Shown: positions 14,399 to 64,000, counted from the first letter of the stretch. The stretch is 64,000 nt of DNA from Porphyrobacter sp. (GCA_027533455.1 JAPZUC010000005.1:30175-94174); one strand, 5' to 3'. Translations and numbers: made by a program. The notes: generated from the sequence alone by a model not told the origin.

Positions 14399-14479
14399 GC
14401 CTGATCGATCCTGCTCTGTCTCACGGTGTCACATCCCTATCCCGCACCGCATTCCTTTGCAACCATAGGCGGTGCGCGG

Positions 14480-15745: not shown

Positions 15746-15794
15746 GGGTTCCTAACGGGGCAGGGCGGACAAGAGCAAGCGTTGGCCGAGACAC

Positions 15795-15822
15795 AAAAGG
15801 CCGCCGGATCGCTCCGACGGCC
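15795..15822 (-). terminator. Intrinsic terminator/attenuator downstream of TonB receptor
   Basis: Minus strand GGCCGTCGGA-GCGA-TCCGGCGGCC followed by TTTT. Confidence 0.7.
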
Positions 15823-15847
15823 CTTGTGTTGTCATCGCCGGAGCGGA

Positions 15848-18175: not shown

Positions 18176-18341
18176 AGTGTAATTCTCCCCTCTGGACATG
18201 ATCAGCTCTTTCGGGCGGGTGTTGCAGATTTCCGCCCGTGCGGTCGATCTTTGGCCTGTCGGGTTGCGCTGCCGGCTCGGCTATGTCAAGCGGTGTCAGA
18301 GCGAGCCAAGGGACAGGCCGGCAAAGGAATCCGGGACGGGA

Positions 18342-44684: not shown

Positions 44685-45676
44685 GCGCCCTCTCCGTGCT
44701 CGGAAGCGAAGGCGGCGGCGGCGCCGAATAGGCCGGGCTGCGGGTGGACGATCAGCTTGACGGGGATGCCTGCCATCAGCGTCTCGAACCGGCCCTTGGC
44801 CCTGAAGCGCGCGGCAAAGCCCGACGTCAGGATCGTCTCGCGAATGCGGTAGCCAAGCCCGCCTGCAATCACCACGCCCGCAAAGCCGCCCTGCGCCAGC
44901 GCAAGATCGCCCGCCACCGACCCGAGCGAGAGGCAGAAACGGTCAACTGCGGCGGCGGCAAGGCTGTCCTCGCCAGTAGTGCCGAGGTTCCAGATCTCGA
45001 TCGTATCGCGCTCCGGCACGGTGCGGCCTTCCAGGGCGGCCAATGCCTGATAGATATCGACGATCCCCGGTCCTGCCACCACACGCTCCACCGAAACGCG
45101 GTTGTGGCGGCTGCGCAGGCGGGCAAGGATCGCGTCCTCGATGGAATCGAGCGGGGCGAAATCGATATGCCCGCCCTCGGTCGCTTGGACGCGGTAGCTG
45201 CCGCCGGAACGGTAGAGATGGGCAACACCCAAGCCGGTGCCGGGGCCGAGCACGCTGATCGTGCCTTCGCGCCCGAGCGGCGTGCCAGGGCCTGCAAGGT
45301 GCAGGAACTGGCTATCATCCGCGCGCGCGACGGCATGGGCGACGGCCGCGAAATCATTGACGAGAGTATAGTGGGTGACGCCCAGCTTTTCCGGGATCAT
45401 GGCCGGGCGGATGATCCACGGATTGTTGGTGAAGCGGATCACCGGATTGGGCTTGCCGGGGCTGCCGACGGGGCCGGCAATAGCGATGCTGACTGCAGGG
45501 GGTAGCGTGCCGCCCTTGCGTGTCCGGAAGGCCTCCCAAGCGGTCTGGAAGCTGGCGTGGTCGGCGGTGTGGAGCGTTTCCGGCTCGTCGAGACTGATCG
45601 CCCCGTCAGCACCTATGCTGGCAATGGCAAAGCGGGCATGCGTCCCGCCGATATCGACCGCTACCATTTCGCGCAT
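44681..45676 (-). CDS. glk: Glucokinase
   Basis: DIGGTHARF, FTNNPW, LVNDF, GPGTGLG and TEGGH. Confidence 0.92.
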   Translation of the reverse strand: MREMVAVDIGGTHARFAIASIGADGAISLDEPETLHTADHASFQTAWEAFRTRKGGTLPPAVSIAIAGPVGSPGKPNPVIRFTNNPWIIRPAMIPEKLGVTHYTLVNDFAAVAHAVARADDSQFLHLAGPGTPLGREGTISVLGPGTGLGVAHLYRSGGSYRVQATEGGHIDFAPLDSIEDAILARLRSRHNRVSVERVVAGPGIVDIYQALAALEGRTVPERDTIEIWNLGTTGEDSLAAAAVDRFCLSLGSVAGDLALAQGGFAGVVIAGGLGYRIRETILTSGFAARFRAKGRFETLMAGIPVKLIVHPQPGLFGAAAAFASEHGEGA

Positions 45677-45742
45677 GTTTCATCCCCGTCCGTTACCCGA
45701 GCGGGGCAGGTGTAGCAGGCGGCGCGCGGGAATCCCACGCGC

Positions 45743-45758
45743 CGCATACTTATTCAAG
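45743..45758. promoter_or_regulatory. Candidate LacI operator upstream of glk
   Basis: CGCATACTTATTCAAG, identical to 39301-39316, at a similar distance from the start codon. Confidence 0.55.
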
Positions 45759-45760
45759 TG

Positions 45761-47899: not shown

Positions 47900-47980
47900 C
47901 GAGCAGGTACCTCTTGCGAACGATGCACCGCGTGCGCGGCCATCGGAGTGGATCGCGCCCGCGGGCGCATGGCGCGGCTG

Positions 47981-48637
47981 TTAGGCGAGATTCCATGGCC
48001 GCGGAAGGGGCGATTCCATGCTATCGACGGACGGACGACTGGCCGGGTTGAGCACCAGCAGCAGCCGCGCGCCGTGCGCAGTTTCGGCGATCGGCGGGGA
48101 ACGGTGGATCGCCGGCTGGTCGGTCGCAAGCTTGCCCTTGAACAGCCCCACGTCGAAGGCGGCGAGGCGGTTGATGTACTCCGGTTCTGCCCCTTCGGTA
48201 ACGCGCCGCGCGCCGGCCTGCTCGAGCCAGTCGGTGCCTTCGCCGACATAGGTCGTGATGAGGCGGGCAGTCACATAGTCGGCGTGGAACTTGCGGCACG
48301 AATCGGTGCGCACAACTTCGAGCCGAAGCTCGAAGGTGCCGAGATCCATCGCGGTGCAGAACAGGCCGGCGAGGCGTGCTGCATCCTCAATGAGCGCCCG
48401 ATGCAGGGTATGGTCTCCTGCAAAGCCGTTTTGCCGCAGCCCGAGGGCGAGTGTGTCGGGTAGCTTCTCGACCTCGCTCACGAAGCGCAGATCTTGCGGC
48501 GTGCCCAAGGTCAGCGGGGCAAAATCGGCAAAGGGCGCGCGCTGCCAGATCGCAAGGTTACAATCGGGATCGCGGATCGCGTGGAGAACCTCGGCTTCTG
48601 CGGCGATGCGGGACAGGCGGTCGAGCAAGGTTGCCAT
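47981..48637 (-). CDS. DUF1826 family protein
   Basis: NLAIWQR, CRKFHADYV, RLITTYVGEGTDW and IHRSPPI. Confidence 0.85.
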   Translation of the reverse strand: MATLLDRLSRIAAEAEVLHAIRDPDCNLAIWQRAPFADFAPLTLGTPQDLRFVSEVEKLPDTLALGLRQNGFAGDHTLHRALIEDAARLAGLFCTAMDLGTFELRLEVVRTDSCRKFHADYVTARLITTYVGEGTDWLEQAGARRVTEGAEPEYINRLAAFDVGLFKGKLATDQPAIHRSPPIAETAHGARLLLVLNPASRPSVDSMESPLPRPWNLA

Positions 48638-49665: not shown

Positions 49666-50520
49666 CTACCCAGGCTGGTAGAAGACGGAGCAGCCACCTG
49701 CCCCTGATTCACCGCCGCCATCACAGCCGAATTGTTGGTCGGTCGTGGGATCGCGTTCGAACGTCCGCTCGCGGCCCGGGATCGGGCGTACGCCCAGAAG
49801 ATCGCGCAAGGACACGATGCCGCGCTGCGACAGCAAGAAGGGGCCGATCGGCGCCTGACCCGGCCCGGGTATGAACAGAGCCATGCCGGCATCCTCCAGC
49901 GGGATGACCTGATCGCCCACGGTCACGTCGATCGCGCCGCGTTGCACGCCTTGCGCGTTGCGGCCCGGGCCGCGCAGCACGATCAGGCTGGCGGTTTCCG
50001 GATCCGCGGTTGTGTTGCGGTCGATCACGCCCTCGCGCCGCGCGATTGCGATCGCTTCTTCGCCCACCACACCTTCGACGATGGTCCCGCGAATGCCGAT
50101 CGAGGCGACCGGAGTCTTGATCGAAGAGCCTTCGCCGCCCTTCTTCAGCCCGCGGCCGGACATGAATCGGAACGCTCCCTTCGCGACCGACGTACTGACC
50201 GAACTTGCATTGCGTGCAGGATCGTACACAAACCGGTCGATACGCACGCGCGCGTTGGCACCGACGGTGAAACTGGTCTTATCGAGCAGCAACAGCTGGG
50301 TCATGCTGCTTCCGCCGGTCACGATGTCGTTGCCGAGCGCGATCCGCTCGCGCGGTTTGGCCTTGTGGAGCGTCGGATTGGCCGGGGTGGTAACCTTCAC
50401 GTCGTTCCGCACCACCGCGGTGATGCCGACTTCTTGACCCAGGGCAATTGCCGGGATGATCGCTGCCGAGAGTGCTGCGGCGAGCGTGATCTTGCGGGTG
50501 AATGCTGTCATGGTGGGCAT
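49666..50520 (-). CDS. Secreted FecR-domain protein
   Basis: Signal peptide; GNDIVTG, LLDKTSFTVGANARVRID, GAFRFMSG and IKTPVASIGIRGT. Confidence 0.8.
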   Translation of the reverse strand: MPTMTAFTRKITLAAALSAAIIPAIALGQEVGITAVVRNDVKVTTPANPTLHKAKPRERIALGNDIVTGGSSMTQLLLLDKTSFTVGANARVRIDRFVYDPARNASSVSTSVAKGAFRFMSGRGLKKGGEGSSIKTPVASIGIRGTIVEGVVGEEAIAIARREGVIDRNTTADPETASLIVLRGPGRNAQGVQRGAIDVTVGDQVIPLEDAGMALFIPGPGQAPIGPFLLSQRGIVSLRDLLGVRPIPGRERTFERDPTTDQQFGCDGGGESGAGGCSVFYQPG

Positions 50521-50523
50521 CCC

Positions 50524-51753
50524 TTAAAACCTCCACACCAGGGTCAGATCGCCCCCGAAGCTGCTGAATGTCTGGATGAAATCACGATTGGTGTCGCGGG
50601 TTCGGTAACGCGCTGCCCCTTCGAGAAACAGGCTGCGCCCGATCAGCGGCATACCCACGCCGGCGCGCGCGAAGAAGCGCCATTCGCGCGGGCCCGGTCC
50701 GAATTCGTTATTCTGGAAGTCCACGTAACGAAGGGTCGACGACACCGTCCCGTAGATGCCCGCTTCATGGAGCGGAAACTGTCCGCCTGCGGCAAGGCTA
50801 AATGCATCATAGCTGTAGAACTCGAACGGCGCGTCCTTCGTTTCGGCCGCGAGAGCAACGAAATACGAGCTCTGCAGTGTGGGCTGGCGCTCGTAGGCGA
50901 GCTGCGCGGTGTAGTGCCAGCCATCGAAACTGGGGTTGTTAAATTCCTCGTCGACCGCCTCGACGCGGAGCGCAATCTGATCCGTATCGCCCACGCGGAA
51001 ACTGGCGCGCGCTTCGGCCCCGAGGGCAGTCAGATATTCGTCGCCGAACAGCCGGCCATGGCGCACCAGCGCACCGGCGCTGAACACGCTCGCGCCGGTT
51101 TCAATCCCGAAACCCGCCGCAGCATCGCCGAACTGGTAGATCGATTCCGGTCCAGAAAGACTGTTATGTGTCAGGCCAAACAGGTCGCCGTAAACAAAGG
51201 CGTCGCCGACCGGGAATTGCGCGTTGATCTGGCTGCGCGCGACAAAGGCCAGCCCCTCGGTTGATCCGGGGCCGAAGAACGTGCCGATATTGAGCTCGCC
51301 AAAGGCATCCTCGTCATAGGCGAGGCCGATGCTGACACTGCCGCCGATCCGGCCAGTCGGGCGGACAGACTTGCCCAGATCCTCGCCGCAGACCGCGATC
51401 ATTTTCTGCCACGCATCGCCGGAGGCCGGGCGCGAGCGGAGCGCGCTCAGCTCGGCGCGGGCGGCTTCGGGATCGTCGAGCCGGCACAGCAGCCCAGCAT
51501 AGGCCAAGCGCACGTCGTCCGCCTGCGGATTTTCGATCAGTGCACGCTCGAGCGTCGAGGCGGCACCAAGGAGATCGCCCTCCGCCTCCTGCTGCGAAGC
51601 CGTTGCCAGTGCGGTTTCGGGCCGCTCGGCCGCTGCGCTCAAAGCGTCGAGCGCCGCATCGGCATCGCTGTCCTGCGCCGCGGCGGCTGGCGCATAGAGG
51701 GCAAGCCCGGCCACAGAAATAGCCAGCACCATCCGATTACATGATCGGTACAT
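50524..51753 (-). CDS. TPR plus C-terminal outer-membrane beta-barrel protein (Slam/DUF560-like)
   Basis: Start moved to ATG 51753 behind GAAGGGGGA; TPR-like LERALIENP..DDVRLAYA, alternating beta strands and terminal LVWRF. Confidence 0.65.
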   Translation of the reverse strand: MYRSCNRMVLAISVAGLALYAPAAAAQDSDADAALDALSAAAERPETALATASQQEAEGDLLGAASTLERALIENPQADDVRLAYAGLLCRLDDPEAARAELSALRSRPASGDAWQKMIAVCGEDLGKSVRPTGRIGGSVSIGLAYDEDAFGELNIGTFFGPGSTEGLAFVARSQINAQFPVGDAFVYGDLFGLTHNSLSGPESIYQFGDAAAGFGIETGASVFSAGALVRHGRLFGDEYLTALGAEARASFRVGDTDQIALRVEAVDEEFNNPSFDGWHYTAQLAYERQPTLQSSYFVALAAETKDAPFEFYSYDAFSLAAGGQFPLHEAGIYGTVSSTLRYVDFQNNEFGPGPREWRFFARAGVGMPLIGRSLFLEGAARYRTRDTNRDFIQTFSSFGGDLTLVWRF

Positions 51754-51891
51754 CGACAGTTCCCCCTTCATCCAGAAGCACCTTAGCACAAACCTGACTT
51801 CATAAACAGCCCAACCCGGTGAGCGACCGGGTTTACCGCAGGGCGATCGGTTTGCTAAGGCAGTCGGGGCGGACGGGGGGCATAAAAGGGC

Positions 51892-54126
51892 GTGAGCAGG
51901 ATCAAGGCCTTTTTCAAGAGCACCGGCGCCACCGGCCTGCTTGCGCTGGTCACGATCTTTCTGTTCCAGATCAACTATTCGGGCTCGCTCTCGGCGCTCG
52001 GCAATCTGGTCTTCGACACCTTTGTGCGCGCGCAACCGCGCGAATACCGGCCCGCGCCTGTCCGGATTGTTGATATCGACGAGGAATCCCTGCGGCGCGG
52101 AGGGCAGTGGCCGTGGCCGAGGCCAGACGTCGCGCGGTTGTTGCAGCGGCTGACCGATGCCGGAGCGGCCACGATCGCGCTCGACGTGGTCTTTGCCGAA
52201 CCGGATCGTACCTCGCCGGCGCGTCTCGCCGAAGCGCTCGCGCGGCAGGGCGCATCCCCGGAGGCCATCGATGTGCTGCGCACGCTGCCCGACAATGACC
52301 GGCAATTTGCCGAGGCGATATCGCAGATGCCGGTCGTCAATGGCTTCTTCCTGACCCAGGATCCCCTGCGCAGCGCCGCCGTGCCGATCGCCGGGATCGC
52401 GATTTCGGGATCGGCTGATGTCGAGGCGCTCCCGGAATATTCCAATGCGGTGCTGCCGCTCGCGCAGCTCGACGAAGCAGCGCAGGGTCGGGGGTTCCTG
52501 ACACTGTCAGGCGATAGCGACGGGATCGTGCGACGGGCCCCGCTGCTTGCGCGGCAGGGCGACCAGATCCTTCCCGCGCTGTCGATCGAGGCCTTGCGCG
52601 TCGCGCAAGGGGCGGGTTCGGTGCTGGTCAAGATGAGCGACGGCAGTGGCAATATCGCCGCCGGAACCGAGCCGGGCGTGGTGTCAATGAAAGTCGGCGA
52701 CTTCGAAATGCCCACCAACCGCGCCGGCGAATTGTGGATGCATTATACCGATCCCGTGCCGGAGCGGACCATTCCAGCCTGGAAGGTGCTCGATCCCGCC
52801 ACCTCCGATGCCGAACTTGCCCGCCTGTTCGAAGGGCAGATCGTGCTGGTCGGGACGGGAGCGATAGGCTTGCGCGATCTGGTCGCGACCCCGCTGCGCG
52901 AACGTGAGCTAGGTGTGATGGTCCATGCCCAGGCCATCGAGCAGATGATCCTCGGAGAGTTCCTGGTTCGCCCTGATTGGGCGGTCGGGCTGGAGCGCAC
53001 GCTGGTGCTGCTGACCGGCCTTGCCCTGCTCCTGCTCATGCCGCGGCTGGGCGCGACTGGCGGTGCAGTGCTGGGACTGGCGATGATCCTGTTGGTGAGC
53101 GCGGGCAGCTGGTGGGCGTTCAGCGAAGAACGCTTCCTTCTCGATCCGACCTTTCCGGTGCTGGCGATCCTCGCAGTCTATCTCACCGTCACCGTGCTCG
53201 ATTATTACCGCGAGGAGCAGGCGCGCAGCTACATCCACCAGGCCTTCGACCGCTATCTTTCGCCCGAGCTGGTCAAGCGTATCGCGGCCGATCCGCACCA
53301 GCTCGATCTGGGCGGTGAGGAACGCGACATGACGGTGCTGTTCTGCGATATCCGCAGCTTCTCGCGCATTTCGGAGAAGCTCGAGCCGCGCTCGATCATC
53401 GCGTTCCTGATCGGTTTCCTGACCCCGATGTGCGACATCCTGCTCGACCGGAAGGCGACGATCGACAAGTTCATCGGCGATGCCATTCTGGCGTTCTGGA
53501 ACGCGCCGCTGGACGACCCCGACCAGCACGCTAACGCCGCCCGCGCCGCGCTGGCGATGCAGGAGCGGCTGAAACAGCTCAATGCGGAGATGCCGGGGCG
53601 CAAGGACCAGACATGGCCCGGCGACGTCGCGATCGGGATCGGACTCAACTCCGGCCCGTGCTGCGTCGGCAACATGGGTTCGGCCCAGCGCCTGTCCTAT
53701 TCGATCATCGGCGATGCGGTTAACCTTGCATCGCGGATCGAGGGGCTGACGAAGCTGTATGGCGTGCCGATCGCGATGGGCAGCGCCTTGCAGCGCCGCC
53801 TGCCCGAGTTCGCCTCGGTTGAACTTGATCTGGTTCGGGTGGTGGGACGCGATACGCCCGAAGCGATTTACGCTTTGCTGGGCGATGAGACGTTGGCGGC
53901 CAGCAGCGCGTTTCAGGGTTTCGCGACGGGCCATGCGGCAATGCTGGCCGCCTATCGCGCGAGGGATTGGGACAGCGCCGACCGTTTGCTTGACGAATGG
54001 CGCGGCGAGGCGGAGACTTACGGCCTGGGTACGTTGTACGCGATGTATCGCGAACGCACGGCGCAATTGCAGGGCGCGCCGCCGCCGGACAGTTGGGACG
54101 GTGTATTCGCCGCCCGCGAAAAGTAG
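51892..54126 (+). CDS. CHASE2-domain class III adenylate cyclase
   Basis: CHASE2 IVDIDEESL/GQWPWPR and GVMVHAQ, three TM helices, then LFCDIRSF, IDKFIGDA and GDAVNLASRIEG (Lys suggests ATP specificity). Confidence 0.9.
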   Translation: MSRIKAFFKSTGATGLLALVTIFLFQINYSGSLSALGNLVFDTFVRAQPREYRPAPVRIVDIDEESLRRGGQWPWPRPDVARLLQRLTDAGAATIALDVVFAEPDRTSPARLAEALARQGASPEAIDVLRTLPDNDRQFAEAISQMPVVNGFFLTQDPLRSAAVPIAGIAISGSADVEALPEYSNAVLPLAQLDEAAQGRGFLTLSGDSDGIVRRAPLLARQGDQILPALSIEALRVAQGAGSVLVKMSDGSGNIAAGTEPGVVSMKVGDFEMPTNRAGELWMHYTDPVPERTIPAWKVLDPATSDAELARLFEGQIVLVGTGAIGLRDLVATPLRERELGVMVHAQAIEQMILGEFLVRPDWAVGLERTLVLLTGLALLLLMPRLGATGGAVLGLAMILLVSAGSWWAFSEERFLLDPTFPVLAILAVYLTVTVLDYYREEQARSYIHQAFDRYLSPELVKRIAADPHQLDLGGEERDMTVLFCDIRSFSRISEKLEPRSIIAFLIGFLTPMCDILLDRKATIDKFIGDAILAFWNAPLDDPDQHANAARAALAMQERLKQLNAEMPGRKDQTWPGDVAIGIGLNSGPCCVGNMGSAQRLSYSIIGDAVNLASRIEGLTKLYGVPIAMGSALQRRLPEFASVELDLVRVVGRDTPEAIYALLGDETLAASSAFQGFATGHAAMLAAYRARDWDSADRLLDEWRGEAETYGLGTLYAMYRERTAQLQGAPPPDSWDGVFAAREK

Positions 54127-54151: not shown

Positions 54152-55519
54152 ATGGTCGATCAGGCGAGGCCGCAGCGCAAAGGGCAGCTCCGCATCCTTA
54201 CCGCAGTCCTGCTGCTGGCGCTGCTTCCGGCGTCACAGGCGACCGGCAATCCCACATTCGAAGGTGTTGCCACCTGCGCCGGATCGACCTGCCACGGCCG
54301 TGCCGAAGGTAATGGCGCGGTCGTCCGGCAAGACGAGATTGCCACTTGGCAGGAACCTTCCTCGCCCTCGGGTGCCCACAGCCGCGCCTATGCAGTGCTC
54401 GGCGGCAGGCGCGGCCAGCAGATCGCCGCCAGCCTCGGGCTCGGTAATGCGCAGAGTGCACCTGCCTGCCTCGGTTGCCACGCCACCAACGCGCCCGTGG
54501 GCCAGCGCGGCGCAAAGTTTACTCTTAACGACGGGGTCGGCTGCGAGAGCTGCCACGGACCATCCGGCGGCACGTGGCTCGCCGAGCACTATGCGCTGCC
54601 CGCAACTCACGCCTCTAACATCGCGGCAGAGCTTACCCCACTCGACAACCCCAAGGCGCGGGCAGGCGTGTGCCTCGATTGCCATTACGGCTCGTCCAAG
54701 CCCGGGCAGTTCGTGACCCATTCGATGATGGCCGCCGGGCACCCGCGCATCTCGTTCGATCTCGACCTGTTCAGCGCCCTCCAGCAGCACCATGACATCG
54801 ATGCCGACTATGTGCGCCGCAAGGGCCCGCCGGATCCGGTGCGCTTCTGGGCCGTAGGGCAAGCCGAGGCGGTGCGCCGTTCGACCAGCCTGTTCGCCCA
54901 GCCGCAGTTCGCCTTTGAAGGCGCCTTCCCGCAGTTCTATTTCTACGACTGCCATTCGTGCCACCGCACGATCACCGACGGGCCGAACCGCAAACTCACC
55001 TTCGAGACCAATCCCGGCCGCCCGATCCCCTTCGGCAACCCGCCCTTCAATGACGAGAACATGATCATGCTCTCGGCTGTCGCGGGCGCATTGGCGCCAG
55101 GCGAGGCAGGGGCATTCCAGACCGCCGCGCGCGACTTCCACAAGGCGATGGGGCAGGGGCCGGGCGAAGCGCGCGCCGCCGCGCAGGCGCTTGCGGCCCG
55201 CGCCGGCGCGCTGTCGGAGGCGCTCTCGGCGCGCGCCTATGGCGATGCCGACGCGTTCCGGGTGATCGCGATCATCGCGGGCGAGGCAACCTCGGCGCGC
55301 TTCACCGACTATGCCGGTTCGGTGCAGGCGGTGATGGCGATCGACACGCTGCTCAATGCACTGGTGCGCGAAGGCCGGGTGACGCAGGGCGCTGCGGCGG
55401 GCATCCGCGGCGATATCGCGCGGGCGTACAAGGCGGTCGATGAGCCCAACGCCTACCGGCCGGCCGATTTCCGCGCGGCGCTGAAATCGGCAGCGGGCGC
55501 AATCGGCAGGCTGCAATAG
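54152..55519 (+). CDS. Exported multiheme c-type cytochrome (c554-like domain), 4 CxxCH plus 1 CX4CH
   Basis: Start moved to ATG 54152 behind GGGAAGGGGA; CAGSTCH, CLGCH, CESCH, CLDCH and CHSCH. Confidence 0.85.
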   Translation: MVDQARPQRKGQLRILTAVLLLALLPASQATGNPTFEGVATCAGSTCHGRAEGNGAVVRQDEIATWQEPSSPSGAHSRAYAVLGGRRGQQIAASLGLGNAQSAPACLGCHATNAPVGQRGAKFTLNDGVGCESCHGPSGGTWLAEHYALPATHASNIAAELTPLDNPKARAGVCLDCHYGSSKPGQFVTHSMMAAGHPRISFDLDLFSALQQHHDIDADYVRRKGPPDPVRFWAVGQAEAVRRSTSLFAQPQFAFEGAFPQFYFYDCHSCHRTITDGPNRKLTFETNPGRPIPFGNPPFNDENMIMLSAVAGALAPGEAGAFQTAARDFHKAMGQGPGEARAAAQALAARAGALSEALSARAYGDADAFRVIAIIAGEATSARFTDYAGSVQAVMAIDTLLNALVREGRVTQGAAAGIRGDIARAYKAVDEPNAYRPADFRAALKSAAGAIGRLQ

Positions 55520-55521
55520 CC

Positions 55522-57471
55522 ATGCGGCGGGGGGGCACCACAGGCTGGCTGGCGGCAAGCGCTCTGGTGCTTGCATCCTGCGGCGGAGGGGGAAGCTCAG
55601 GTGGGGGCAGCCCGACCCCGACACCCACCCCGACGCCCACGCCGCCGCCCGGCGGACAGGTCTTCGCCGTGCCAGCCGCCGAAAGCTTGTCGAGTGTGGA
55701 GGTCGGCACCATCATCGCGCAGGCCGCTGCCGAAGCGCGGGCGCGGGGCGCGGCGGCAACGATTGCGGTGACCGACCGCGTGGGCAACGTGCTCGCCGTG
55801 TTCGCCATGCCCGGGGCGGCGGCGACCGCCAGCATCCCGCCCGCACCCGACGGCACCAGCCGCGATGCCCAGGGGCTCACCATCCCGAGCGCCGGCGCGG
55901 CCATCGCCAAGGCCATCACCGGGGCCTACCTGTCGAGCGGGGGCAACGCGTTCTCGAGCCGCACTGCGAGCATGATCGTGCAGGAGCATTTCCCGCCCGC
56001 GCCCACCACCGCCGGGCTCGAAAGCGGGCCGCTGTTCGGGGTGCAGTTCAGCCAGCTGCCCTGTTCCGATCTTGCCGCGCGGGCGAGTGACGGGCTGATC
56101 GGCCCCAAGCGGTCGCCGCTCGGTCTTGCCGCTGACCCGGGGGGCTTCCCGCTCTACCAGAACGGCGTAGTGGTTGGCGGCATCGGGGTGATCGCCGACG
56201 GGGTCTACGGCCTCGACCCCAACGTGCTTGACCGTGACAATGACCTCGACGAGGCGATTGCGCTGGCCGGCACGGTCGGCTTCGAGGCACCCACGGGGAT
56301 CCGTGCCGAGCGGATCACCGCCGATGGCACTTCGCTGCGCTACTCTGACATCGAATACGCCCAGATCGGCAGTGTCGCAGGGGCGAGCTTTGCGGCCACG
56401 GCGGGCGCGCTGGTGGCGGTCATGGGATATCATAGCGGCGCCGGGCTGCTCGCGGGCGCGACCTATGGCACCGAGGCTTCGGGCGTGCGCGCTTCGACCG
56501 CCGCCGAGTTCGCCAACCGCGATGCCTTCGTGCTCACTAACGGGGTGGGGGTGAACCGCTATCCGGTGCGCAGCGGCACCGACGCTGGCGATGTCGCCAC
56601 CCCGCTCGCCGCCGCCGAGGCGCGGGCGATCCTTGAAGAAGCCTTCGCCGTCATGAGCCGCGCGCGGGCACAGATCCGCCAGCCCTTAGATAGCCGCGCG
56701 CAGGTGACGATCAGCCTCGTCGATACACGCGGGGCCGTGCTGGGTATCGTGCGATCACCAGATGCGCCGGTGTTCGGGATCGATGTCAGCTTGCAGAAGG
56801 CGCGCACGGCCAACTTTTTCTCCGGCAGCTTCGCCGCGGTCGAGCTTTCGGGGGCGGCGGGCGAGGTGCCGCAGTTCGTGACACGGCTGCGCAGCTTCCT
56901 CGGCGATCCGGCGGCGCTTATCGGAAGCACCGCCTTTTCCGACCGCGCCCACGGGAACCTCTCGCGCCCCTATTTCCCCGATGGCGAGGTGGGGCAGCCC
57001 AATGGGCCGTTCTCCCGCCCGATCCAGCAGTTCAGCCCCTTCTCGACCGGCTTGCAGAGCGCGCTGGTGGTCGGCAACCTCGCGCAGCATCTGGGCTTCG
57101 TGACCGGTGCGAGCGGGACGGATACGCCGCGGGCCTGCACTACGCTGCCGGGCGCGGGCGGCGGCAATCCACGTCTGGCCAACGGCATCCAGATCTTCCC
57201 TGGATCGGTCCCTGTCTATCGCGGCGGAGTGCTCGTCGGTGGGATCGGCGTATCGGGCGACGGGATCGATCAGGACGACATGATCAGTTTCCTCGGCCTT
57301 CACAACGGCGCGGTGCGCGCAGGCGGCGCGCTCGGCAACGCGCCTGCCGCGATCCGTGCCGACCGGATCTTGGTGCAGGTGGGCGGACGTCAGGTGCGGC
57401 TGCGCTATGTGAATTGTCCCTTCGCACCGTTCATCGGCACCGATGTGCAGAACGTGTGTCAGGGGCTGTAG
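55522..57471 (+). CDS. Lipoprotein with two GlcG/HbpS-like heme-binding domains
   Basis: Lipobox LASC and G/S then PT linker; duplicated IAVTDRVG..AKAITG..GGFPL..GGIGV and ISLVDTRG..QKART..GSVPV..GGIGVSG. Confidence 0.75.
   Translation: MRRGGTTGWLAASALVLASCGGGGSSGGGSPTPTPTPTPTPPPGGQVFAVPAAESLSSVEVGTIIAQAAAEARARGAAATIAVTDRVGNVLAVFAMPGAAATASIPPAPDGTSRDAQGLTIPSAGAAIAKAITGAYLSSGGNAFSSRTASMIVQEHFPPAPTTAGLESGPLFGVQFSQLPCSDLAARASDGLIGPKRSPLGLAADPGGFPLYQNGVVVGGIGVIADGVYGLDPNVLDRDNDLDEAIALAGTVGFEAPTGIRAERITADGTSLRYSDIEYAQIGSVAGASFAATAGALVAVMGYHSGAGLLAGATYGTEASGVRASTAAEFANRDAFVLTNGVGVNRYPVRSGTDAGDVATPLAAAEARAILEEAFAVMSRARAQIRQPLDSRAQVTISLVDTRGAVLGIVRSPDAPVFGIDVSLQKARTANFFSGSFAAVELSGAAGEVPQFVTRLRSFLGDPAALIGSTAFSDRAHGNLSRPYFPDGEVGQPNGPFSRPIQQFSPFSTGLQSALVVGNLAQHLGFVTGASGTDTPRACTTLPGAGGGNPRLANGIQIFPGSVPVYRGGVLVGGIGVSGDGIDQDDMISFLGLHNGAVRAGGALGNAPAAIRADRILVQVGGRQVRLRYVNCPFAPFIGTDVQNVCQGL
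55612..55650 (+). repeat. Coding Pro-Thr tandem repeat (linker)
   Basis: CCGACC/ACACCC/ACGCCC units encoding PTPTPTPTPTPPP. Confidence 0.8.
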
Positions 57472-59325
57472 ATGGGGCCGCTGCTTCCCGCCTTGCTGCT
57501 GCTTCAGGCTGCACCGCCGCAAGACGTGGATGCACCGCCCGCGCCTCCCGGCGAACAGTCAGCTCCGCAGGATTGGGAGCAGGATATCCCTCCCGTCGAT
57601 CCCGAGATTATCGAGGGCCGCCAGCGTCCCGGCTACACCGCGCCGCTGCCCGAACGGATCGAGCAGAACAACGAGGGCGCTGTGCGCGCTCCCCCGCCGC
57701 AGGCCTTTCCGGCTGATCAGGTGCCGATCCCCGATCGCTGGCGGCTGATCGAGAGTCTCGGGCTGGTCAAAGAGAACCTCCTCGATCCCTACAACCAGAA
57801 CACCCTGAAAGGCGACCGGCCCATCAACCGCGCCAAGGTGCCGTGGCTGCCGATCAAGGAAGATGACTGGTTCTTCGTCGCCAACCTGATTTCCGACACC
57901 GTCTATGAACCGCGCAGCTTCCCCATTCCGGTCGGCGTGCAGACCACCGAGGACCCGGACCGCAACGATGTGTTCGGCAATGCCTTCAGCCAGGTATTCA
58001 GCCAGACCTTCATCGCCGGTTTCGCGCTGCTGAAAGGATCGACCACCTTCAAGCCGCCGAGCATCGAATACCGCGTCACCTTTGCCTACAACGTCAACTA
58101 TGTCGACGTGCCCGAGCGCCGCGTGCTGTTCGTGGAGCCGTCGCGTCCGAGCCACCGGCTCGACCACTTCCTCGGGGTGCAGGAAGCCTTCGTCGATTAC
58201 CACTTCGGCCAATTCGACAACGACCGGTTCGACTTCATCTCACTGCGCGCCGGAATCCAGCCGTTCCAGTCCGACTTCCGCGGTTTCCTGTTCAACGACC
58301 AGCAGCTCGGCGTGCGCCTGTTCGGATCGCGCGACAACAATCGCTTCCAGTTCAACTTGGGCGCGTTCTGGAGGCTGGAGAAGGACACCAATTCGGGCCT
58401 CAATTCGGTGGTGCAGGCCCCACGCGATGATTTCGTGTTCGTCGCCAATGCTTACCGGCAGGATTTCCTGATCCCGGCGCTCACCAGTCAGGTCACGGTT
58501 GTCTACAACCGCAACCGCGAGGCCGACGATATCGAGATCGACGACAACGGCTTCCCCGTGCGCCCGGCCTTGCTGGGCACGCTGAGAGGCCGTGACTATG
58601 ACGCGGTCTATCTCGGCTACAACATGGATGGCCGGATCGGCCGGGTGAACTTGACGGGCAGTTTCTACTGGGCGCTGGGGGAGGACCGGAACAGCTTTTT
58701 CACCGATCGACCGGCCAGCATCAACGCGCAGTTCGCCGCCCTCGAGGCGAGTTATGACCGCGACTGGATGCGCTTCCGCGTCTCGGCCGCCTATGCCAGC
58801 GGCGACAGCGATCCTTATGACGACACCGAAGGCGGGTTCGACGCGATCTTCGAGAACCCGGTCTTTGCGGGCGCTGATACCTCGTACTGGATCCGCCAGA
58901 CCATTCCCTTTGCGGGCGGCGGGCGCGCGATTGCGCTGAATGGCCGCAACGGCATCCTCAATTCGCTGCGCTCCTCCAAGGAGCAGGGACAGTCGAACTT
59001 CAACAATCCGGGCCTGATCCTTACGGGGGCGGGCGCGGATTTCGACCTGACCCCGCAGCTGCGCGTCTCGGCCAATGCCAATCACCTGTGGTTCGAGGAT
59101 ACCTCCACCTTGCAGGTGCTGCGCAACGAAGGCTCGATCCCGAAAGATATCGGCTTTGACCTTTCAGCCTCGGCGATCTGGCGGCCCAAGGCCAACCAGA
59201 ATTTCGTCTTCCGCCTCTCCGCCGCGACGCTGCTGGCGGGTGACGGTTTCCGCGACCTGTTCACTTCCCGCGGAGGTGGAAAGGAATTCGTCTCGATCCT
59301 CGCCAACGTGGTACTGACCTACTGA
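57472..59325 (+). CDS. Predicted outer-membrane beta-barrel protein, function unknown
   Basis: Signal peptide, Pro-rich N-terminus, aromatic alternating strands, GVQEAFVDYH and terminal NVVLTY. Confidence 0.7.
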   Translation: MGPLLPALLLLQAAPPQDVDAPPAPPGEQSAPQDWEQDIPPVDPEIIEGRQRPGYTAPLPERIEQNNEGAVRAPPPQAFPADQVPIPDRWRLIESLGLVKENLLDPYNQNTLKGDRPINRAKVPWLPIKEDDWFFVANLISDTVYEPRSFPIPVGVQTTEDPDRNDVFGNAFSQVFSQTFIAGFALLKGSTTFKPPSIEYRVTFAYNVNYVDVPERRVLFVEPSRPSHRLDHFLGVQEAFVDYHFGQFDNDRFDFISLRAGIQPFQSDFRGFLFNDQQLGVRLFGSRDNNRFQFNLGAFWRLEKDTNSGLNSVVQAPRDDFVFVANAYRQDFLIPALTSQVTVVYNRNREADDIEIDDNGFPVRPALLGTLRGRDYDAVYLGYNMDGRIGRVNLTGSFYWALGEDRNSFFTDRPASINAQFAALEASYDRDWMRFRVSAAYASGDSDPYDDTEGGFDAIFENPVFAGADTSYWIRQTIPFAGGGRAIALNGRNGILNSLRSSKEQGQSNFNNPGLILTGAGADFDLTPQLRVSANANHLWFEDTSTLQVLRNEGSIPKDIGFDLSASAIWRPKANQNFVFRLSAATLLAGDGFRDLFTSRGGGKEFVSILANVVLTY

Positions 59326-62300
59326 TGCGCGCGCTCACTCAGCCTTTCGCCCGTCACCTCGCGCTGATCGCCGCGGCCATTGTGCTGGCTGTCAGCCTGT
59401 TTGCCGGTAGCCCGATGGCGTCCGACAAGGAAAAGCCGGTCAAGCGTGATTACTCCGCCGTCTTCGCAGCCCCCGCGCCGCAGCGGCAATCGGTGGCTCA
59501 GATGGAAGCCAAGTCGGAAGGCTGCAACACCTGCCACGTCAAGAGTGATGCCCCGACCATGCACGTCACCCCGGCGGTGCGGCTGGGCTGCACCGATTGC
59601 CACGGCGGGAATCCGGCCGTGCGCGGCAATTCAGAGCTGCCGCACGATCACCCCGATTATGTGGCCGCCCGAGACAGCGCGCACGTGCTGCCAACCTACC
59701 CCAAATCGTGGCACTTCCCGTCCTCGGCCAACCCGCAGCGGTCCTATGCCCTGCTCAATCAGGAATCGCCCGAGTTCGTGAAGTTCATCAACCCGTCGGA
59801 CTACCGCGTGGCGCGCGATGCTTGCGGGGCGTGCCACATTCAGGCGATCGAGGCGGCGGAACGCTCGATCATGGCGACCGGCGCGATGCTGTGGGGCGGG
59901 GCGAGCTACAACAACGGAATTCTCCCGTTCAAAAACTACCTCCTCGGCGAGGCCTATTCCCGCGAGGGCGATCCCGCGAAGATCACCTCGCCGGGCGCCG
60001 GGCCCGGAGGCAAGCTCAGCGAGGATCAGGTTGCGCGCGGGGTGCTGGCCGAGATGTATCCGCTGCCCACGTGGCAGGTGATCCCGCCCGGCGACGTGTT
60101 CCGCGTTTTCGAGCGCGGCGGGCGCAACATCAACACGCAATTCGCCGAAGTCGGCTTGCCCAATCCGACCGGCCTGATCCAGCGTTTGGATGAGCCGGGC
60201 CGCCCCGATCTCAAGCAATCGAACCGCGGTCCCGGCACAGGCCTGCGCGTCGCGATCCCGGCGCTCAACATCCACAAGACCCGCCTCAACGATCCCTTCA
60301 CGTGGTTCATGGGCACCAACGACCAGCCGGGCGACTACCGCCACTCGGGCTGCGCGAGTTGCCACGTGGTCTACGCCAATGACCGCGAGCCGCGCCATTC
60401 GCTGACTTATGCGCAATACGGGCGCGACGGGCAGTCGATCACGGTCGATCCGACCATTGCCGATAAGATCGAGCATGCTGCGGGCTATGGCGAGAAGACC
60501 AGCGGGCACGGGGCGGTGAAGCAGCCGGGGCATCACGCGGAAGAAGACAGCCACGGCGACAAGCCCAAGGATGACGGCGCGCTTCGCACGGCATCGGGCG
60601 AGGTCAAGGAGAAGGGGCACCCGCTCCAGCACGTCTTCACCCGCGCCATCCCGACCGCGCAGTGCATGAATTGCCACATGCACCAGCCGAACATCTTCCT
60701 GAACAGCTTCCTCGGCTACACCATGTGGGATTACGAGAGCGACGCGCCCTCGATGTGGCCCAAGCAGCAGAAATATCCCACAGCTGCCGAGGTTCGCGCC
60801 ATCACTGATCGCAACCCGGAAGGCGCCGCGCCGAAGGGCAACTGGTCCGACCTCGATTTCCTGCGCAACGTCTATGACCTGAACCCGACGCTGAAGGACA
60901 CCCAGTTCGCCGATTACCACGGCCACGGCTGGAACTTCCGCGCGATCTTCAAGCGCGACCGTGAGGGCAATCTGCTCGACGCGGACGGGAACATCGTCGA
61001 CCCCGACGATCCCGAGAAGTGGCGGAAAGAAGGCGAGGGCAAGTTCGTGCCCCCCGGCACCAACCCGGGCAAGACCGTACACATGATGGACATCCATGCC
61101 GAAAAGGGGATGCAGTGCGCCGATTGCCACTTCGAGCAGGACAGCCACGGCAATGGCCTCATCTATGGCGAGGTGGCGAACGCGATCGAGATCACCTGCA
61201 AGGATTGCCACGGCACGCCCGACGCCTACCCGACCTTGCGCACCAGTGGCCCCGCTGCGCCGCCCGAAGGTCATGACCTCGCCCTGCTGCGCAACCCCGA
61301 TGGCAAGCGCCGCTTCGAATGGATGGAAGGGGCCGATGGCAGGCGCAAACTTGTTCAGCGCTCAATTGTCGACCCCAACCTCGAATGGGACATGAGCCTC
61401 GTCAAGGACACGGTCGATCCTGCGACGCCCGTGTTCAACGCCAAGGCCGCGCGGGCGAAGCTCGTCAGCCGTTACGGCGCGGAGACCGGCAATTTCGAAT
61501 TCGGCACCGGCATCGCGGAAGGCGACCGCGCGCACCGCGATCCCGAGATGGCGTGCTTCACCTGCCACCTGTCATGGACCACCAGCTGCGGCGGGTGCCA
61601 CCTGCCCATCGAGGCCAACTGGAAGACCAAGATCCACCGCTATGAAGGCGGCGAGACACGCAACTTTGCCACCTACAACCCGCAGGTCGCGCGCGACGAA
61701 ATGTTCCAGCTCGGCAAGCACATGACCACCAAAGGCGGGCAGGTGGCTCCGGTGCGCTCGTCCTCGGCGCTGGTGCTGTCGTCCACCAACACCAATCGCG
61801 AACGCATTTATGTGCAGCAGCCGCCGATCAGTGCGATCGGCTTCTCCAGCCAGGCCTTCGCGCCGCACTTCCCGCATACGGTGCGTCTGACCGAGACCAA
61901 GACCTGCACCGATTGCCACCTGTCGGCCAAAGACGACAACAACGCGATCATGGCGCAGCTCTTCCTGCTGGGGACGAGCTACGTCAATTTCGTCGGGCTC
62001 AATGCATGGACCGGGCTAGAGGGCGGCTTCCAGGCCACCCGCGTCACCGAATATGACGAACCGCAGGCAGTGATCGGGTCCTATCTCCAGCGCTATGCCT
62101 ATCCCGATTACTGGAAGCTCCATGTCGAGCAGAACGGGCGCGAGCTGAAGAACTGGGTGCGCGGCAAGACCTTCGACAAGAACCTCTCGGGCGAGACCCA
62201 GCCGTTCGAGGAGTTTGCTAATGTCCACGAAGGTACGCCGGGCCGGGTCGGCTGCCTGCAGCTGCGCGGCGAATACATGTTCGTGGCCGAAGGCAAGGGC

Positions 62301-63446
62301 GGCTTTGTCGCCTATGACGTTGCCAGCATCGCCAACAAGGGCGTGTCCGAGCGGATCCTCAAGGGCCCGTTCTCGGGCCTCGGGCATGACACGCAGGTCA
62401 GGACCACCAACGCCACCTGCATGGCACTGGCGACCAACCAGCCGATCGCGCCGACCCGCAGCACGCCCGAACTGCGCATCATCAACCAGGAGCAGGCGTT
62501 CAAGCCGATCTACAACTACGCCGCCGTCACCGATGCGGTGGAGGGCCTGATCCTCGTCAACGTCAACACGCTGGCGGACGGGGAATTCCGCAACAACCAG
62601 CTGAGGCGCAAGGCCTATGCCGATGGTTCGACCGCGTGGAACCCGGGCGGTGTGCTGAAGGGCGCGCGGCATATCGTGCTGGCGGGCGAAGTTGCCTATA
62701 TCACCGCCGACCGCGGCCTTGTGGTGGTCGATCTTGCCGATCCCGACACGCCGAAACTTGCCGCCGTGCGCGAGCTGCGCGATGCGCGGGCCTCCGCGGT
62801 GCAGTTCCGCTACCTGTGGGTGACGGACGCCGGCGGGGTGAAGCTGTTCGATATCACGTCACTGCGCGATCCGGTCGCCGTGCCCGAGGCGACCGTGCCG
62901 CTGGCCGATGCGCGGCGGATGTATGTCGCGCGCACCTATGCCTATGTCGCGGCGAAAAGGGATGGTCTGGTGATCCTCAACGTCACCAACCCGCGCGCGC
63001 CCAAGGTCTATCAGAAGGTCACGCTGGGCGGGACGCTCAACGATGCCGAGGATGTGATCGTCGGCACCACCAACGCCTCGCTGTTCGCTTACGTGGCGGA
63101 CGGGCGCAACGGAATGAAGGTGCTGCAACTCACCAGCCCCGACAGCCAGCGCAACTTCTACGGCTTCAGCCCTGCGCCCATGCCGGAACTGATCGCCTGG
63201 GCGAAAACGCCGACACCTGCCATCGCGCTCAGCAAGGGACTCGACCGCGATCGTGCGGTGGACGAGACCGGTGGACAGATGGCGGTGTTCGGGCGATTGG
63301 GTTCGCGGCCCTTCACTAGGTCGGAGATGGAGCGGATGTTTATGACCCGCTCGGGCGTGCCGTGGAAGGTCGCGGACGAGATCGACATGAAGCGCTGGGT
63401 GGGCACCGCGCCAACGGGGGCGCAGCGGGCGGCAGTGCGCAAGTAG
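59325..63446 (+). CDS. Large exported decaheme c-type cytochrome with C-terminal LVIVD-type beta-propeller
   Basis: Ten CxxCH (CNTCH, CTDCH, CGACH, CASCH, CMNCH, CADCH, CKDCH, CFTCH, CGGCH, CTDCH); repeats such as AYITADRGLVVVDLADP and AYVAAKRDGLVILNVTNP. Confidence 0.88.
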   Translation: MRALTQPFARHLALIAAAIVLAVSLFAGSPMASDKEKPVKRDYSAVFAAPAPQRQSVAQMEAKSEGCNTCHVKSDAPTMHVTPAVRLGCTDCHGGNPAVRGNSELPHDHPDYVAARDSAHVLPTYPKSWHFPSSANPQRSYALLNQESPEFVKFINPSDYRVARDACGACHIQAIEAAERSIMATGAMLWGGASYNNGILPFKNYLLGEAYSREGDPAKITSPGAGPGGKLSEDQVARGVLAEMYPLPTWQVIPPGDVFRVFERGGRNINTQFAEVGLPNPTGLIQRLDEPGRPDLKQSNRGPGTGLRVAIPALNIHKTRLNDPFTWFMGTNDQPGDYRHSGCASCHVVYANDREPRHSLTYAQYGRDGQSITVDPTIADKIEHAAGYGEKTSGHGAVKQPGHHAEEDSHGDKPKDDGALRTASGEVKEKGHPLQHVFTRAIPTAQCMNCHMHQPNIFLNSFLGYTMWDYESDAPSMWPKQQKYPTAAEVRAITDRNPEGAAPKGNWSDLDFLRNVYDLNPTLKDTQFADYHGHGWNFRAIFKRDREGNLLDADGNIVDPDDPEKWRKEGEGKFVPPGTNPGKTVHMMDIHAEKGMQCADCHFEQDSHGNGLIYGEVANAIEITCKDCHGTPDAYPTLRTSGPAAPPEGHDLALLRNPDGKRRFEWMEGADGRRKLVQRSIVDPNLEWDMSLVKDTVDPATPVFNAKAARAKLVSRYGAETGNFEFGTGIAEGDRAHRDPEMACFTCHLSWTTSCGGCHLPIEANWKTKIHRYEGGETRNFATYNPQVARDEMFQLGKHMTTKGGQVAPVRSSSALVLSSTNTNRERIYVQQPPISAIGFSSQAFAPHFPHTVRLTETKTCTDCHLSAKDDNNAIMAQLFLLGTSYVNFVGLNAWTGLEGGFQATRVTEYDEPQAVIGSYLQRYAYPDYWKLHVEQNGRELKNWVRGKTFDKNLSGETQPFEEFANVHEGTPGRVGCLQLRGEYMFVAEGKGGFVAYDVASIANKGVSERILKGPFSGLGHDTQVRTTNATCMALATNQPIAPTRSTPELRIINQEQAFKPIYNYAAVTDAVEGLILVNVNTLADGEFRNNQLRRKAYADGSTAWNPGGVLKGARHIVLAGEVAYITADRGLVVVDLADPDTPKLAAVRELRDARASAVQFRYLWVTDAGGVKLFDITSLRDPVAVPEATVPLADARRMYVARTYAYVAAKRDGLVILNVTNPRAPKVYQKVTLGGTLNDAEDVIVGTTNASLFAYVADGRNGMKVLQLTSPDSQRNFYGFSPAPMPELIAWAKTPTPAIALSKGLDRDRAVDETGGQMAVFGRLGSRPFTRSEMERMFMTRSGVPWKVADEIDMKRWVGTAPTGAQRAAVRK

Positions 63447-63455
63447 GCGGCGGCC

Positions 63456-64000
63456 TTATTCCCGCTCGGCGAACATGCCTTCGATCATCGGCTGCAGCGC
63501 GGCGTGGAAGCGCGCCAGCACCTGCCAATCGCCGACCTGCTCGTAATGCGAGACGAGGGTTTCCCCGTCCCAGCGATGCAGGGCATAGGAGGGCGGCTCA
63601 GTGATGATTAGCTCGCGGTCGTCGGGCAACGCGGCGTCGATCGGGTTGAGGTCCATCCCTACCAGCGGCGCGACCGAGGGCGTTACCCCGAGCGGAATTC
63701 CGGCAAAGCGGGTGCTGATCTGGCGGTGCAGGTGTCCGCAATGCACCGCCAGCACCTGGCGCTGCCCTTCGAGCACGGCGCGCAGCCGGGTGATCCAGTG
63801 TTCGTCAGGTGCAGGGTCCATCCAGTCGATCCCGGCGACGACGGGAGGGTGATGCATGAAGATCAGGGTCGGTGCCTCTGGCGCCTCGGCCAGCCGGTCC
63901 GCCAGCCAGCGCGCCCGCGCCGTGCAGAAAGCGCCGCCGTGGCGGCCATCCTCCAGCGTGTCTAGGCAGATGATCCTGAGGCCCATCGGCGCCTCGACCA
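63456..64000 (-). CDS. Metallophosphoesterase, CpdA/GpdQ-like phosphodiesterase; 5' end outside window
   Basis: ICLDT, LIFMHHPP and HCGHLHR; frame open to the window edge. Confidence 0.75.
   Translation of the reverse strand, partial: VEAPMGLRIICLDTLEDGRHGGAFCTARARWLADRLAEAPEAPTLIFMHHPPVVAGIDWMDPAPDEHWITRLRAVLEGQRQVLAVHCGHLHRQISTRFAGIPLGVTPSVAPLVGMDLNPIDAALPDDRELIITEPPSYALHRWDGETLVSHYEQVGDWQVLARFHAALQPMIEGMFAERE

Follow-up and report, generated by a model that had tools for sequence, protein, structure and literature searches.

A conserved four-gene multihaem cytochrome operon of Porphyrobacter sp. as the candidate outer half of a two-module envelope electron-transfer system

Multihaem conduits across the cell envelope are known mainly from metal-respiring or iron-oxidising specialists. 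The subject of this report is an operon of four plus-strand open reading frames (ORFs), designated g1 to g4, at positions 54152-63446 of a 64,000-nucleotide (nt) stretch of Porphyrobacter sp. DNA (GCA_027533455.1 JAPZUC010000005.1:30175-94174; the whole stretch is called the window), which encodes two exported multihaem cytochromes, a lipoprotein and a predicted outer-membrane barrel. An earlier note on the same DNA had presented the operon as a four-gene machine forming a distinct trans-envelope redox or haem-handling system. Judged by the domain descriptions in its preprint, the closest described system is ptdABCDEFG, a cluster defined in silico and accompanied by transcription data, found in marine Alphaproteobacteria of UBA11136 and in other phyla, whose function is called 'completely unknown' there (bioRxiv 10.1101/2023.11.21.568154). 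Its products are given there as PtdA (pentahaem with a beta-sandwich), PtdB (porin), PtdC (oxidoreductase binding flavin adenine dinucleotide (FAD) and NAD(P), the nicotinamide adenine dinucleotide (phosphate)), PtdD (periplasmic tetrahaem), PtdE (binding cyclic nucleotide monophosphates (cNMPs), with 4Fe-4S), PtdF (ferric-reductase-like membrane protein) and PtdG (decahaem) (bioRxiv 10.1101/2023.11.21.568154). All six domain types of this description (oxidoreductase, cNMP-binding with 4Fe-4S, ferric-reductase-like, decahaem, tetrahaem and porin) are present at our locus when the operon downstream of g4 is included. At the same level of description, the large subunit here is a decahaem cytochrome with an LVIVD propeller, whereas PtdA is a pentahaem protein with a beta-sandwich; an HbpS-like lipoprotein is encoded here and none is included in the Ptd set; the flavoprotein is fused here with the cNMP-binding and Fe-S domains, the FHA domain sits on the decahaem protein, and the gene order is different. 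The Ptd host entries considered are marine or saline, with no Sphingomonadales among them.

A second related cluster, described as novel and of function unknown, has been reported from Ferrigenium straubiae and consists of an FHA-nonahaem cytochrome, a protein with five transmembrane segments and a 4Fe-4S protein; its authors saw no redox motif in the membrane protein and proposed that electrons flow inward from Fe(II) oxidases (bioRxiv 10.64898/2026.01.22.701106). The same three-part inner module is found next to g1-g4, including an arrangement in which one transmembrane helix separates the FHA domain, in the cytoplasm, from the multihaem domain, with ten haems here in place of nine and with an outer module of the g2, g3 and g4 type for which no equivalent is described in Ferrigenium. 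The system in the window is thus not completely unseen, related parts of it being present in two preprints that both give the function as unknown. In the literature searched, no paper on the g2-g3-g4 module and no experimental characterisation of the system were found. The uet cluster of Tenderia and the cytochrome/NHL-propeller clusters of Desulfovibrio ferrophilus were considered and rejected as different systems.

With MtrCAB, PioAB and MtoAB the operon shares the pairing of an outer-membrane barrel with multihaem c-type cytochromes and the logic of moving electrons across the envelope; it differs from them in a barrel of about 18 rather than 26 strands, in the lack of a lipoprotein decahaem and in family membership. 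None of the NCBIfam models for MtrA/DmsE, OmcA/MtrC, GSU2203, NrfA/H or the Ext proteins came near its cut-off with g1-g4, and none of the Mtr, Dms, OmcA or MtrB-PioB models was matched, in line with the earlier impression that these proteins do not look like MtrA or MtrB. The inner feed would also differ, being quinol via CymA in MtrCAB and an NAD(P)H flavoprotein with a cytochrome b here. Membrane complexes with a comparable division of labour are the Hmc and Tmc complexes of sulfate reducers, in which multihaem c-type cytochromes lie outside, cytochrome b in the membrane and Fe-S and flavin subunits inside, and the NOX and FRE enzymes, in which electrons are carried outward from NAD(P)H through FAD and two b-type haems. 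The window system follows the same outside, membrane and inside subunit logic as both groups, but matches to their models are sub-threshold or local (HmcB 37 bits, cut-off 420; Ferric_reduct 27.6 bits, cut-off 28), their subunit composition differs and they are without cNMP-binding or FHA domains. Clear orthology to a characterised complex was found neither in NCBIfam nor in the PDB, and the claim of a trans-envelope redox system distinct from MtrCAB, PioAB and the Geobacter Pcc/Ext systems stands to that extent; it has to be narrowed in that the barrel is unlikely to be a wide sheath and in that related parts have already appeared in the two preprints.

Conservation and content of the g1-g4 operon

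The ORFs and their junctions were found as the earlier note had read them, with 2 base pairs (bp) between g1 and g2, 0 bp between g2 and g3 and a 1-bp overlap of g3 and g4 (TGATG). All four products carry export signals, namely a hydrophobic, export-type N-terminal segment in g1, a lipobox in g2, a short and weak signal peptide in g3 and, in g4, a signal peptide after which the mature protein starts with the conserved sequence (S/A)(D/E)EEKPV, with g4 not being a lipoprotein. The loci examined were the best 80 of at least 595 confirmed g4 matches, one genome per species, and came from Sphingomonadales, Caulobacterales and Rhodospirillaceae; the g4 family as a whole comprises 676 clusters at E<=1e-30 in a library clustered at 50% identity. 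The closest homologues (80-100% identity) are from Erythrobacter and Porphyrobacter and are all named 'hypothetical' or 'LVIVD repeat-containing', which places the window in a genome of the Erythrobacteraceae. Hosts include Sphingomonas, Sphingobium, Novosphingobium, Erythrobacter and Caulobacter, and homologues are also found in Ferrovibrio.

Upstream gene content was counted in the 59 loci with at least 5.6 kilobases (kb) upstream of g4. Both g3 and g2 were present in all of them (59/59 each) and g1 in 56/59, in each of these 56 directly upstream of g2. Gene order from g1 to g4 is identical in Sphingomonadales and Caulobacterales, and g3 is always immediately upstream of g4, Planctomycetota and Xenobia included. 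In a Planctomycetota genome, homologues of g3 (41% identity) and g4 (42%) are adjacent, with a 26%-identical g2-like gene and ResB/CcsA maturation genes alongside, and a Xenobia contig carries g3-like (28%) and g4-like (34%) genes together. Failure of the genes to co-occur across genomes, named earlier as a possible refutation, was therefore not seen: the g3-g4 pair is kept across phyla, and the g1-g4 order recurs in dozens of genomes, far more than chance would allow. In a wastewater metatranscriptome (run X25), contigs of related sphingomonads cover g1-g4 (window 54300-64000) at a mean depth of 2-65 and almost no contig covers the upstream genes at 50-52.4 kb, which suggests, as judged from contigs of relatives, that the operon is expressed.

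The g1 protein carries four CXXCH haem motifs and one CX4CH (C42AGSTC47H48). At least 93% of 56 homologues keep the CX4CH, together with all CXXCH; g1 is therefore most reasonably taken as a five-haem protein, the upper of the four to five haems proposed before, and the operon total, announced as 14-15 motifs, becomes 15. Against Pfam Cytochrome_C554 g1 scored 46.7 bits (cut-off 20.8); its N-terminal half is c554-like and its C-terminal ~180 amino acids (aa) are without a family match. The equivalog model for Nitrosomonas CycA (NF043010) gave 12.8 bits (cut-off 400), so with the Pfam domain present the likeness to c554 is one of fold family only. Scores against the MtrA/DmsE model TIGR03508 (20.7 bits, cut-off 192.2) and the OmcA/MtrC model TIGR03507 (15.5 bits, cut-off 209.3) were also below their cut-offs, and g4 gave no match to either model. 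In g4, 10 CXXCH motifs extend over residues ~67-865 and the LVIVD propeller over ~950-1300; in relatives with as little as 39% identity each of the ten motifs, where not invariant, is conserved at 90% or more, in agreement with the ten-haem protein that had been called.

The g2 protein scored 68.1 bits against the Pfam HbpS-like family (PF03928; cut-off 25) in three stretches over two domains, and its lipobox (LASC) is followed by a Gly/Ser/Pro/Thr linker; both halves of its earlier description, as a two-domain HbpS/GlcG-like protein and as a lipoprotein, are borne out. Lipobox and linker are retained in Sphingomonadales and Caulobacterales and not in Rhodospirillaceae. Weak matches of g2 to EfgA/GlcG-like chains were obtained in the PDB.

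Genes for cytochrome c maturation were seen adjoining the system in distant lineages (loci are given by L numbers: L001 20409-21392, L049/L066 ~13.9-18.4 kb, L082 1138-5208) and encode a CcmH/CycH-like TPR protein or ResB/CcsA; the set in L049/L066 is likely a ccm-type (System I) operon, as judged from ORF lengths and sequence only. Their position beside the system fits a heavy demand for haem attachment.

The inner-membrane module and the proposed electron path

A convergent operon on the minus strand begins 9 bp past g4, and the window ends inside its Metallophos gene, which is the last gene of that operon. The rest was read from the contig L084, whose genome of origin is the same or almost identical (553/554 identical over the window overlap), in which the minus strand after g4 (L084 7691-13703) encodes a Metallophos protein of 289 aa, an FHA+decahaem protein of 601 aa, a membrane protein of 292 aa and an FAD/FeS protein of at least 808 aa; the corresponding inner operon in L001 spans 14246-20334. 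Flavoprotein, membrane protein and FHA-decahaem genes lie just downstream of g4 on the opposite strand in most Sphingomonadales, and all three were found within 10 kb in 32/44 long-flank loci. In Rhodospirillaceae metagenome-assembled genomes, in L081 and in the Ferrovibrio locus L086, a single operon holds both modules, headed by genes for the flavoprotein (~800 aa), the membrane protein (~272 aa), the FHA protein with its ten CXXCH (~590 aa) and a further protein of ~140 aa, with g2-g3-g4 as its tail. The four-gene machine of the earlier note is therefore a real conserved unit but only part of the machine, since the genes directly downstream encode a conserved module of the inner membrane and cytoplasm. 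The reading of g1-g4 as the part in periplasm and outer membrane of a multihaem electron-transfer system with two modules is one for which belief and doubt are about equal.

As a separate observation on the single-operon (Rhodospirillales) form, its ~140-aa protein is exported, belongs to no family and is encoded between the FHA-decahaem protein and g2 (L078 5843-6256, L086 7741-8166, L081 7741-8151); a homologue was seen neither in the window nor in any of the Sphingomonadales loci.

In the flavoprotein, a pyridine-nucleotide-disulfide-oxidoreductase fold (Pyr_redox_2/3; YpdA/TrxR-like) is combined with two cNMP_binding domains (1.3e-30) and with a ferredoxin domain that is HydN/DmsB/NrfC-like and carries four CxxCxxCxxxC (4Fe-4S) motifs. 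The membrane subunit contains two conserved His pairs, spaced i/i+14, in hydrophobic segments. His pairs spaced 14 apart in hydrophobic segments are the classic signature of a transmembrane di-haem cytochrome b, and the subunit is predicted to be such a cytochrome; its score against cytochrome b561 was 26 bits (cut-off 30), and the sub-threshold Ferric_reduct score given above was obtained with its distant homologue in L085. In the FHA protein, one transmembrane helix lies between the FHA domain and 10 conserved CXXCH. The L001 orthologue of the Metallophos protein matches SpdA (E 5.5e-37), CpdA (7e-19) and Rv0805 (4e-20). In L085, a g4 relative (40% identity) shares an operon with genes for c554-like, cNMP/Fer4, Ferric_reduct-like and multihaem proteins, and the locus looks intermediate between Ptd and the window system.

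Upstream, a CHASE2-sensor cyclase gene ends 25 bp before g1. Orthologues at >=55% identity were found no more than 10 kb from the system in 9 other loci, at varying positions; the gene is inside the inner-module operon in the Caulobacter metagenome-assembled genome L059 and at the operon head in L025, which makes its product a candidate regulator of the system. Because a cyclase, a phosphodiesterase-like enzyme and cNMP receptor domains surround one redox chain, electron flow is probably gated by cyclic nucleotides.

In the proposed path, electrons would pass from NAD(P)H to FAD, to the 4Fe-4S clusters, across the inner membrane over two b-type haems to the decahaem, and on to g1 (five haems) and g4 (ten haems). 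The flavoprotein would be cytoplasmic; the FHA-decahaem protein would be held in the inner membrane by its one helix with the FHA domain on the cytoplasmic side; g1 would act as a periplasmic electron shuttle; and g3 and the lipoprotein g2 may together make up an outer-membrane station to which the propeller of g4 docks. The g3 barrel would most likely serve as a specific channel or docking partner through which a soluble acceptor reaches the haems or a reduced product leaves, and candidate acceptors would be ferric chelates, other metal or oxyanion species, and O2. The outward direction is proposed because of the redox potentials and by analogy with NOX/FRE and with Hmc/Tmc-type complexes. 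What was observed here comprises gene content and linkage, sequence conservation including that of the haem ligands, the domain families and the barrel fold; outward flow, the order of carriers, the roles of g2 and g3 and the cNMP gating are what we infer. Taken as a whole, a cNMP-gated, NAD(P)H-fed electron export system that spans the envelope, a counterpart of NOX and ferric reductases extended by ~25 c-type haems to a station of AlgE-like channel, HbpS-like lipoprotein and cytochrome-propeller, is a tentative proposal that is somewhat unlikely to hold in full.

Several points weigh against the two-module reading and its path. Only redox logic speaks for the proposed direction of electron flow, and the haem, flavin and Fe-S cofactors are predicted from sequence, with the di-haem b call in particular resting on sub-threshold family scores and His spacing. 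An 18-strand barrel offers no obvious electron route across the outer membrane, so that the system may end in the periplasm. The inner module was not within 10 kb in 12/44 long-flank loci and is perhaps elsewhere or absent there, and in the flanks examined most loci show no linked CHASE2 cyclase. The metatranscriptome signal comes from assembled contigs of relatives and could include DNA.

If cNMP-gated, NAD(P)H-fed export were true, the system would represent a new class of envelope redox system that works on demand, for example in reductive iron acquisition or in extracellular production of reactive oxygen; it would provide a new route by which iron or other acceptors are reduced outside the cytoplasm in oxic waters and soils, and it would add an unexpected function to signalling by cyclic AMP and cyclic GMP (the adenosine and guanosine monophosphates). 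The system is encoded in hundreds of species, among them ordinary aerobic heterotrophs and photoheterotrophs, as well as Planctomycetota and Xenobia, and several of the hosts are culturable and genetically tractable.

The outer-membrane barrel, the direction of flow and alternative readings

The g3 structure was modelled with AlphaFold2 on a diverse alignment of 79 sequences, for which a third homology search was started from a Rhodospirillaceae homologue of 50% identity. An alignment of 14 near-identical sequences had given an unusable model (predicted local distance difference test (pLDDT) score 26); with 79 sequences pLDDT was 76.8 and the predicted template-modelling (TM) score 0.76. The model has ~18 long antiparallel strands over residues ~133-616. 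Foldseek returned AlgE (3rbh_A) as the top match (E 5.8e-17, TM score 0.64 normalised to AlgE), followed by OprD/Occ channels, MOMP and chitoporin; MtrB was not among the top 50. The product of the gene at 57472 is accordingly modelled as an outer-membrane barrel of substrate-channel size, AlgE/OprD-like, and the barrel proposed by the earlier note is upheld in model and porin matches alike. The 18-stranded fold is shared with AlgE (PDB 3rbh, 4afk) and OprD at an identity of 13-14%. AlgE has a lipoprotein partner, AlgK, which is encoded beside it, and g2 adjoins g3 likewise; no alginate or other polysaccharide synthesis genes were found near, the neighbours being cytochromes, the HbpS-like lipoprotein, the cyclase and the redox module. 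No Pfam or NCBIfam match to g3 was obtained at E<=0.1, and no relatives were found in the PDB by sequence or profile search. Alginate_exp (PF13372) did not match g3 of the window and matched 3/21 homologues weakly (best E 0.016); one distant homologue carries a precomputed PF13372 match, and two are named 'Alginate export domain-containing' in UniRef.

The N-terminal extension of g3 is disordered in the model, with residues ~85-117 conserved. Between strands 13 and 14 lies a loop of ~70 residues (~443-514; window ~58798-59013) that is rich in invariant Gly, Asp, Asn and Arg and is the most conserved part of the protein across families at 50% identity. Strand parity in the model puts the loop at the extracellular face of the barrel; it may, given its conservation, fold into the lumen, and it is probably a pore constriction or an interface.

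The first alternative is a conduit of the MtrAB/PioAB type, in which g1 or the N-terminal part of g4 would sit inside g3 and electrons would pass directly to minerals or electrodes. A barrel and multihaem proteins in one operon are what such a conduit would contain, a 10+5+10 haem chain is long enough to span the periplasm, and the high conservation of the g3 N-terminal extension and of the 443-514 loop is as expected of a protein-protein interface. However, the ~18 strands of the modelled barrel make it the size of AlgE and OprD, unlike the 26-strand MtrB-type sheath, so a cytochrome threaded through it is unlikely and g3 is most likely a channel or docking partner. In addition, the MtrB/PioB, DmsE/MtrA and OmcA/MtrC models are all unmatched, g4 has no lipoprotein signal, genes for a secretion system are not present in the vicinity, and with ~80-100 residues per haem and a large propeller g4 is too bulky to thread. 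We regard a conduit of this type as improbable.

The window organism belongs to a group of photoheterotrophs, which could use extra electron donors. A second alternative, held to be improbable to the same degree, is that the path runs inward, with the outer module oxidising a donor from the periplasm or from outside the cell (Fe(II), Mn(II), reduced humics or sulfur species) that enters via g3 and passing electrons to the b/Fe-S/flavoprotein complex. Besides the photoheterotrophic lifestyle, the occurrence of homologues in Ferrovibrio argues for inward uptake, as does the homologous FHA-multihaem/membrane/4Fe-4S module of Ferrigenium, proposed to carry Fe(II)-derived electrons inward (bioRxiv 10.64898/2026.01.22.701106). 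Against it, electrons from high-potential donors would have to go uphill to reduce NAD(P)+ with no energy-coupling subunit in sight, and ordinary aerobic heterotrophs, Sphingomonas, Sphingobium and Caulobacter among them, commonly carry the system; outward export remains the preferred direction.

Whether g4 is a wire or an enzyme bears on a third alternative, in which g4 would be a periplasmic terminal enzyme of the NrfA/octahaem type acting on an N-oxide or oxyanion (nitrite, hydroxylamine, selenite or tellurite) that enters via g3. No full-length family for g4 was found in Pfam or NCBIfam and no sequence relatives in the PDB; Pfam assigns it LVIVD repeats (E 1.4e-11) and generic multihaem families. 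Profile searches of the PDB gave weak matches to NrfB (E 0.0017) and NrfA (E 0.009-0.012, over ~100 residues only). The Geobacter ExtM model NF040943 was matched at 64.2 bits (cut-off 800), in residues 587-639 only; this strong but local match of 53 residues (7.3e-18), over a di-haem motif, is to a protein of a selenite/tellurite-reduction operon and, like the Nrf profiles, speaks for an enzyme. A nitrogen-cycle role has also been raised for the related ptd cluster by its authors (bioRxiv 10.1101/2023.11.21.568154). On the other side, CXXCK and other atypical catalytic haem motifs are absent from g4, its scores against the NrfA and NrfH models fall far short of the cut-offs, and no conserved His or Cys for a metal site was found in the propeller in the alignment of relatives. 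Since 9 conserved His and 2 conserved Met beyond the motifs suffice for ten six-coordinate haems, g4 looks, from these sequence features, like a wire and not an enzyme with an open catalytic haem, and a terminal enzyme is slightly less credible again than the two preceding alternatives.

HbpS senses redox stress with SenS/SenR. The least probable alternative, a haem-handling or redox-sensing device in which g2 would bind or degrade haem or sense redox stress and the cytochromes and cNMP parts would relay the signal, can appeal to the HbpS-like family of g2 and to FHA, cNMP-binding, CHASE2 and phosphodiesterase-like parts as typical signalling domains, but the GlcG/HbpS fold has many unrelated roles, the conserved residues of g2 are four Cys and only one His (H523), no haem transporter, haem oxygenase or two-component system is linked, 25 c-type haems with Fe-S clusters and FAD would be costly for sensing, and g2 is missing in Xenobia and L085 where g4 and the inner module persist. 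The haem handling named in the earlier note is not retained, as it derives only from the name of the HbpS Pfam family.

Coordinates and neighbouring genes

Coordinates of the operon and of the genes next to it are collected in Table 1. The trio of FecR, TPR and cyclase genes (49666-54126) recurs beside the system, though not always at the same place, in L004, L025, L032, L043, L060 and L072. The TPR protein is probably an outer-membrane protein and the FecR protein possibly a sensor partner of the CHASE2 cyclase; a link of the two to the cytochrome system is tentative.

Table 1. Features of the operon and its neighbours, by position in the window
Feature	Position	Strand	Description
FecR-domain exported protein	49666-50520	-	Pfam FecR 1.1e-06
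TPR-containing exported protein	50524-51756	-	Pfam TPR_19; C-terminus ...VWRF
CHASE2-sensor class III nucleotidyl cyclase	51892-54126	+	Pfam CHASE2 8.7e-56, Guanylate_cyc 5.1e-16
g1	54152-55519	+	455 aa; exported 5-haem c554-like cytochrome
g2	55522-57471	+	649 aa; lipoprotein with two HbpS/GlcG (DUF336)-like domains
g3	57472-59325	+	617 aa; predicted outer-membrane beta-barrel, C-terminus ...VVLTY
g4	59325-63446	+	1373 aa; exported decahaem cytochrome fused to a C-terminal LVIVD-repeat beta-propeller
3' part of class III cyclic-nucleotide phosphodiesterase-like (Metallophos) gene	63456-64000	-	truncated at the window end

A scan for promoters and terminators was uninformative, and the window search found no Fur box, which leaves iron regulation without sequence support. 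The neighbours at 41919-48637 (PEP carboxylase-like, glucokinase, peptidase S46 and DUF1826), with no link to the system, have a housekeeping look.

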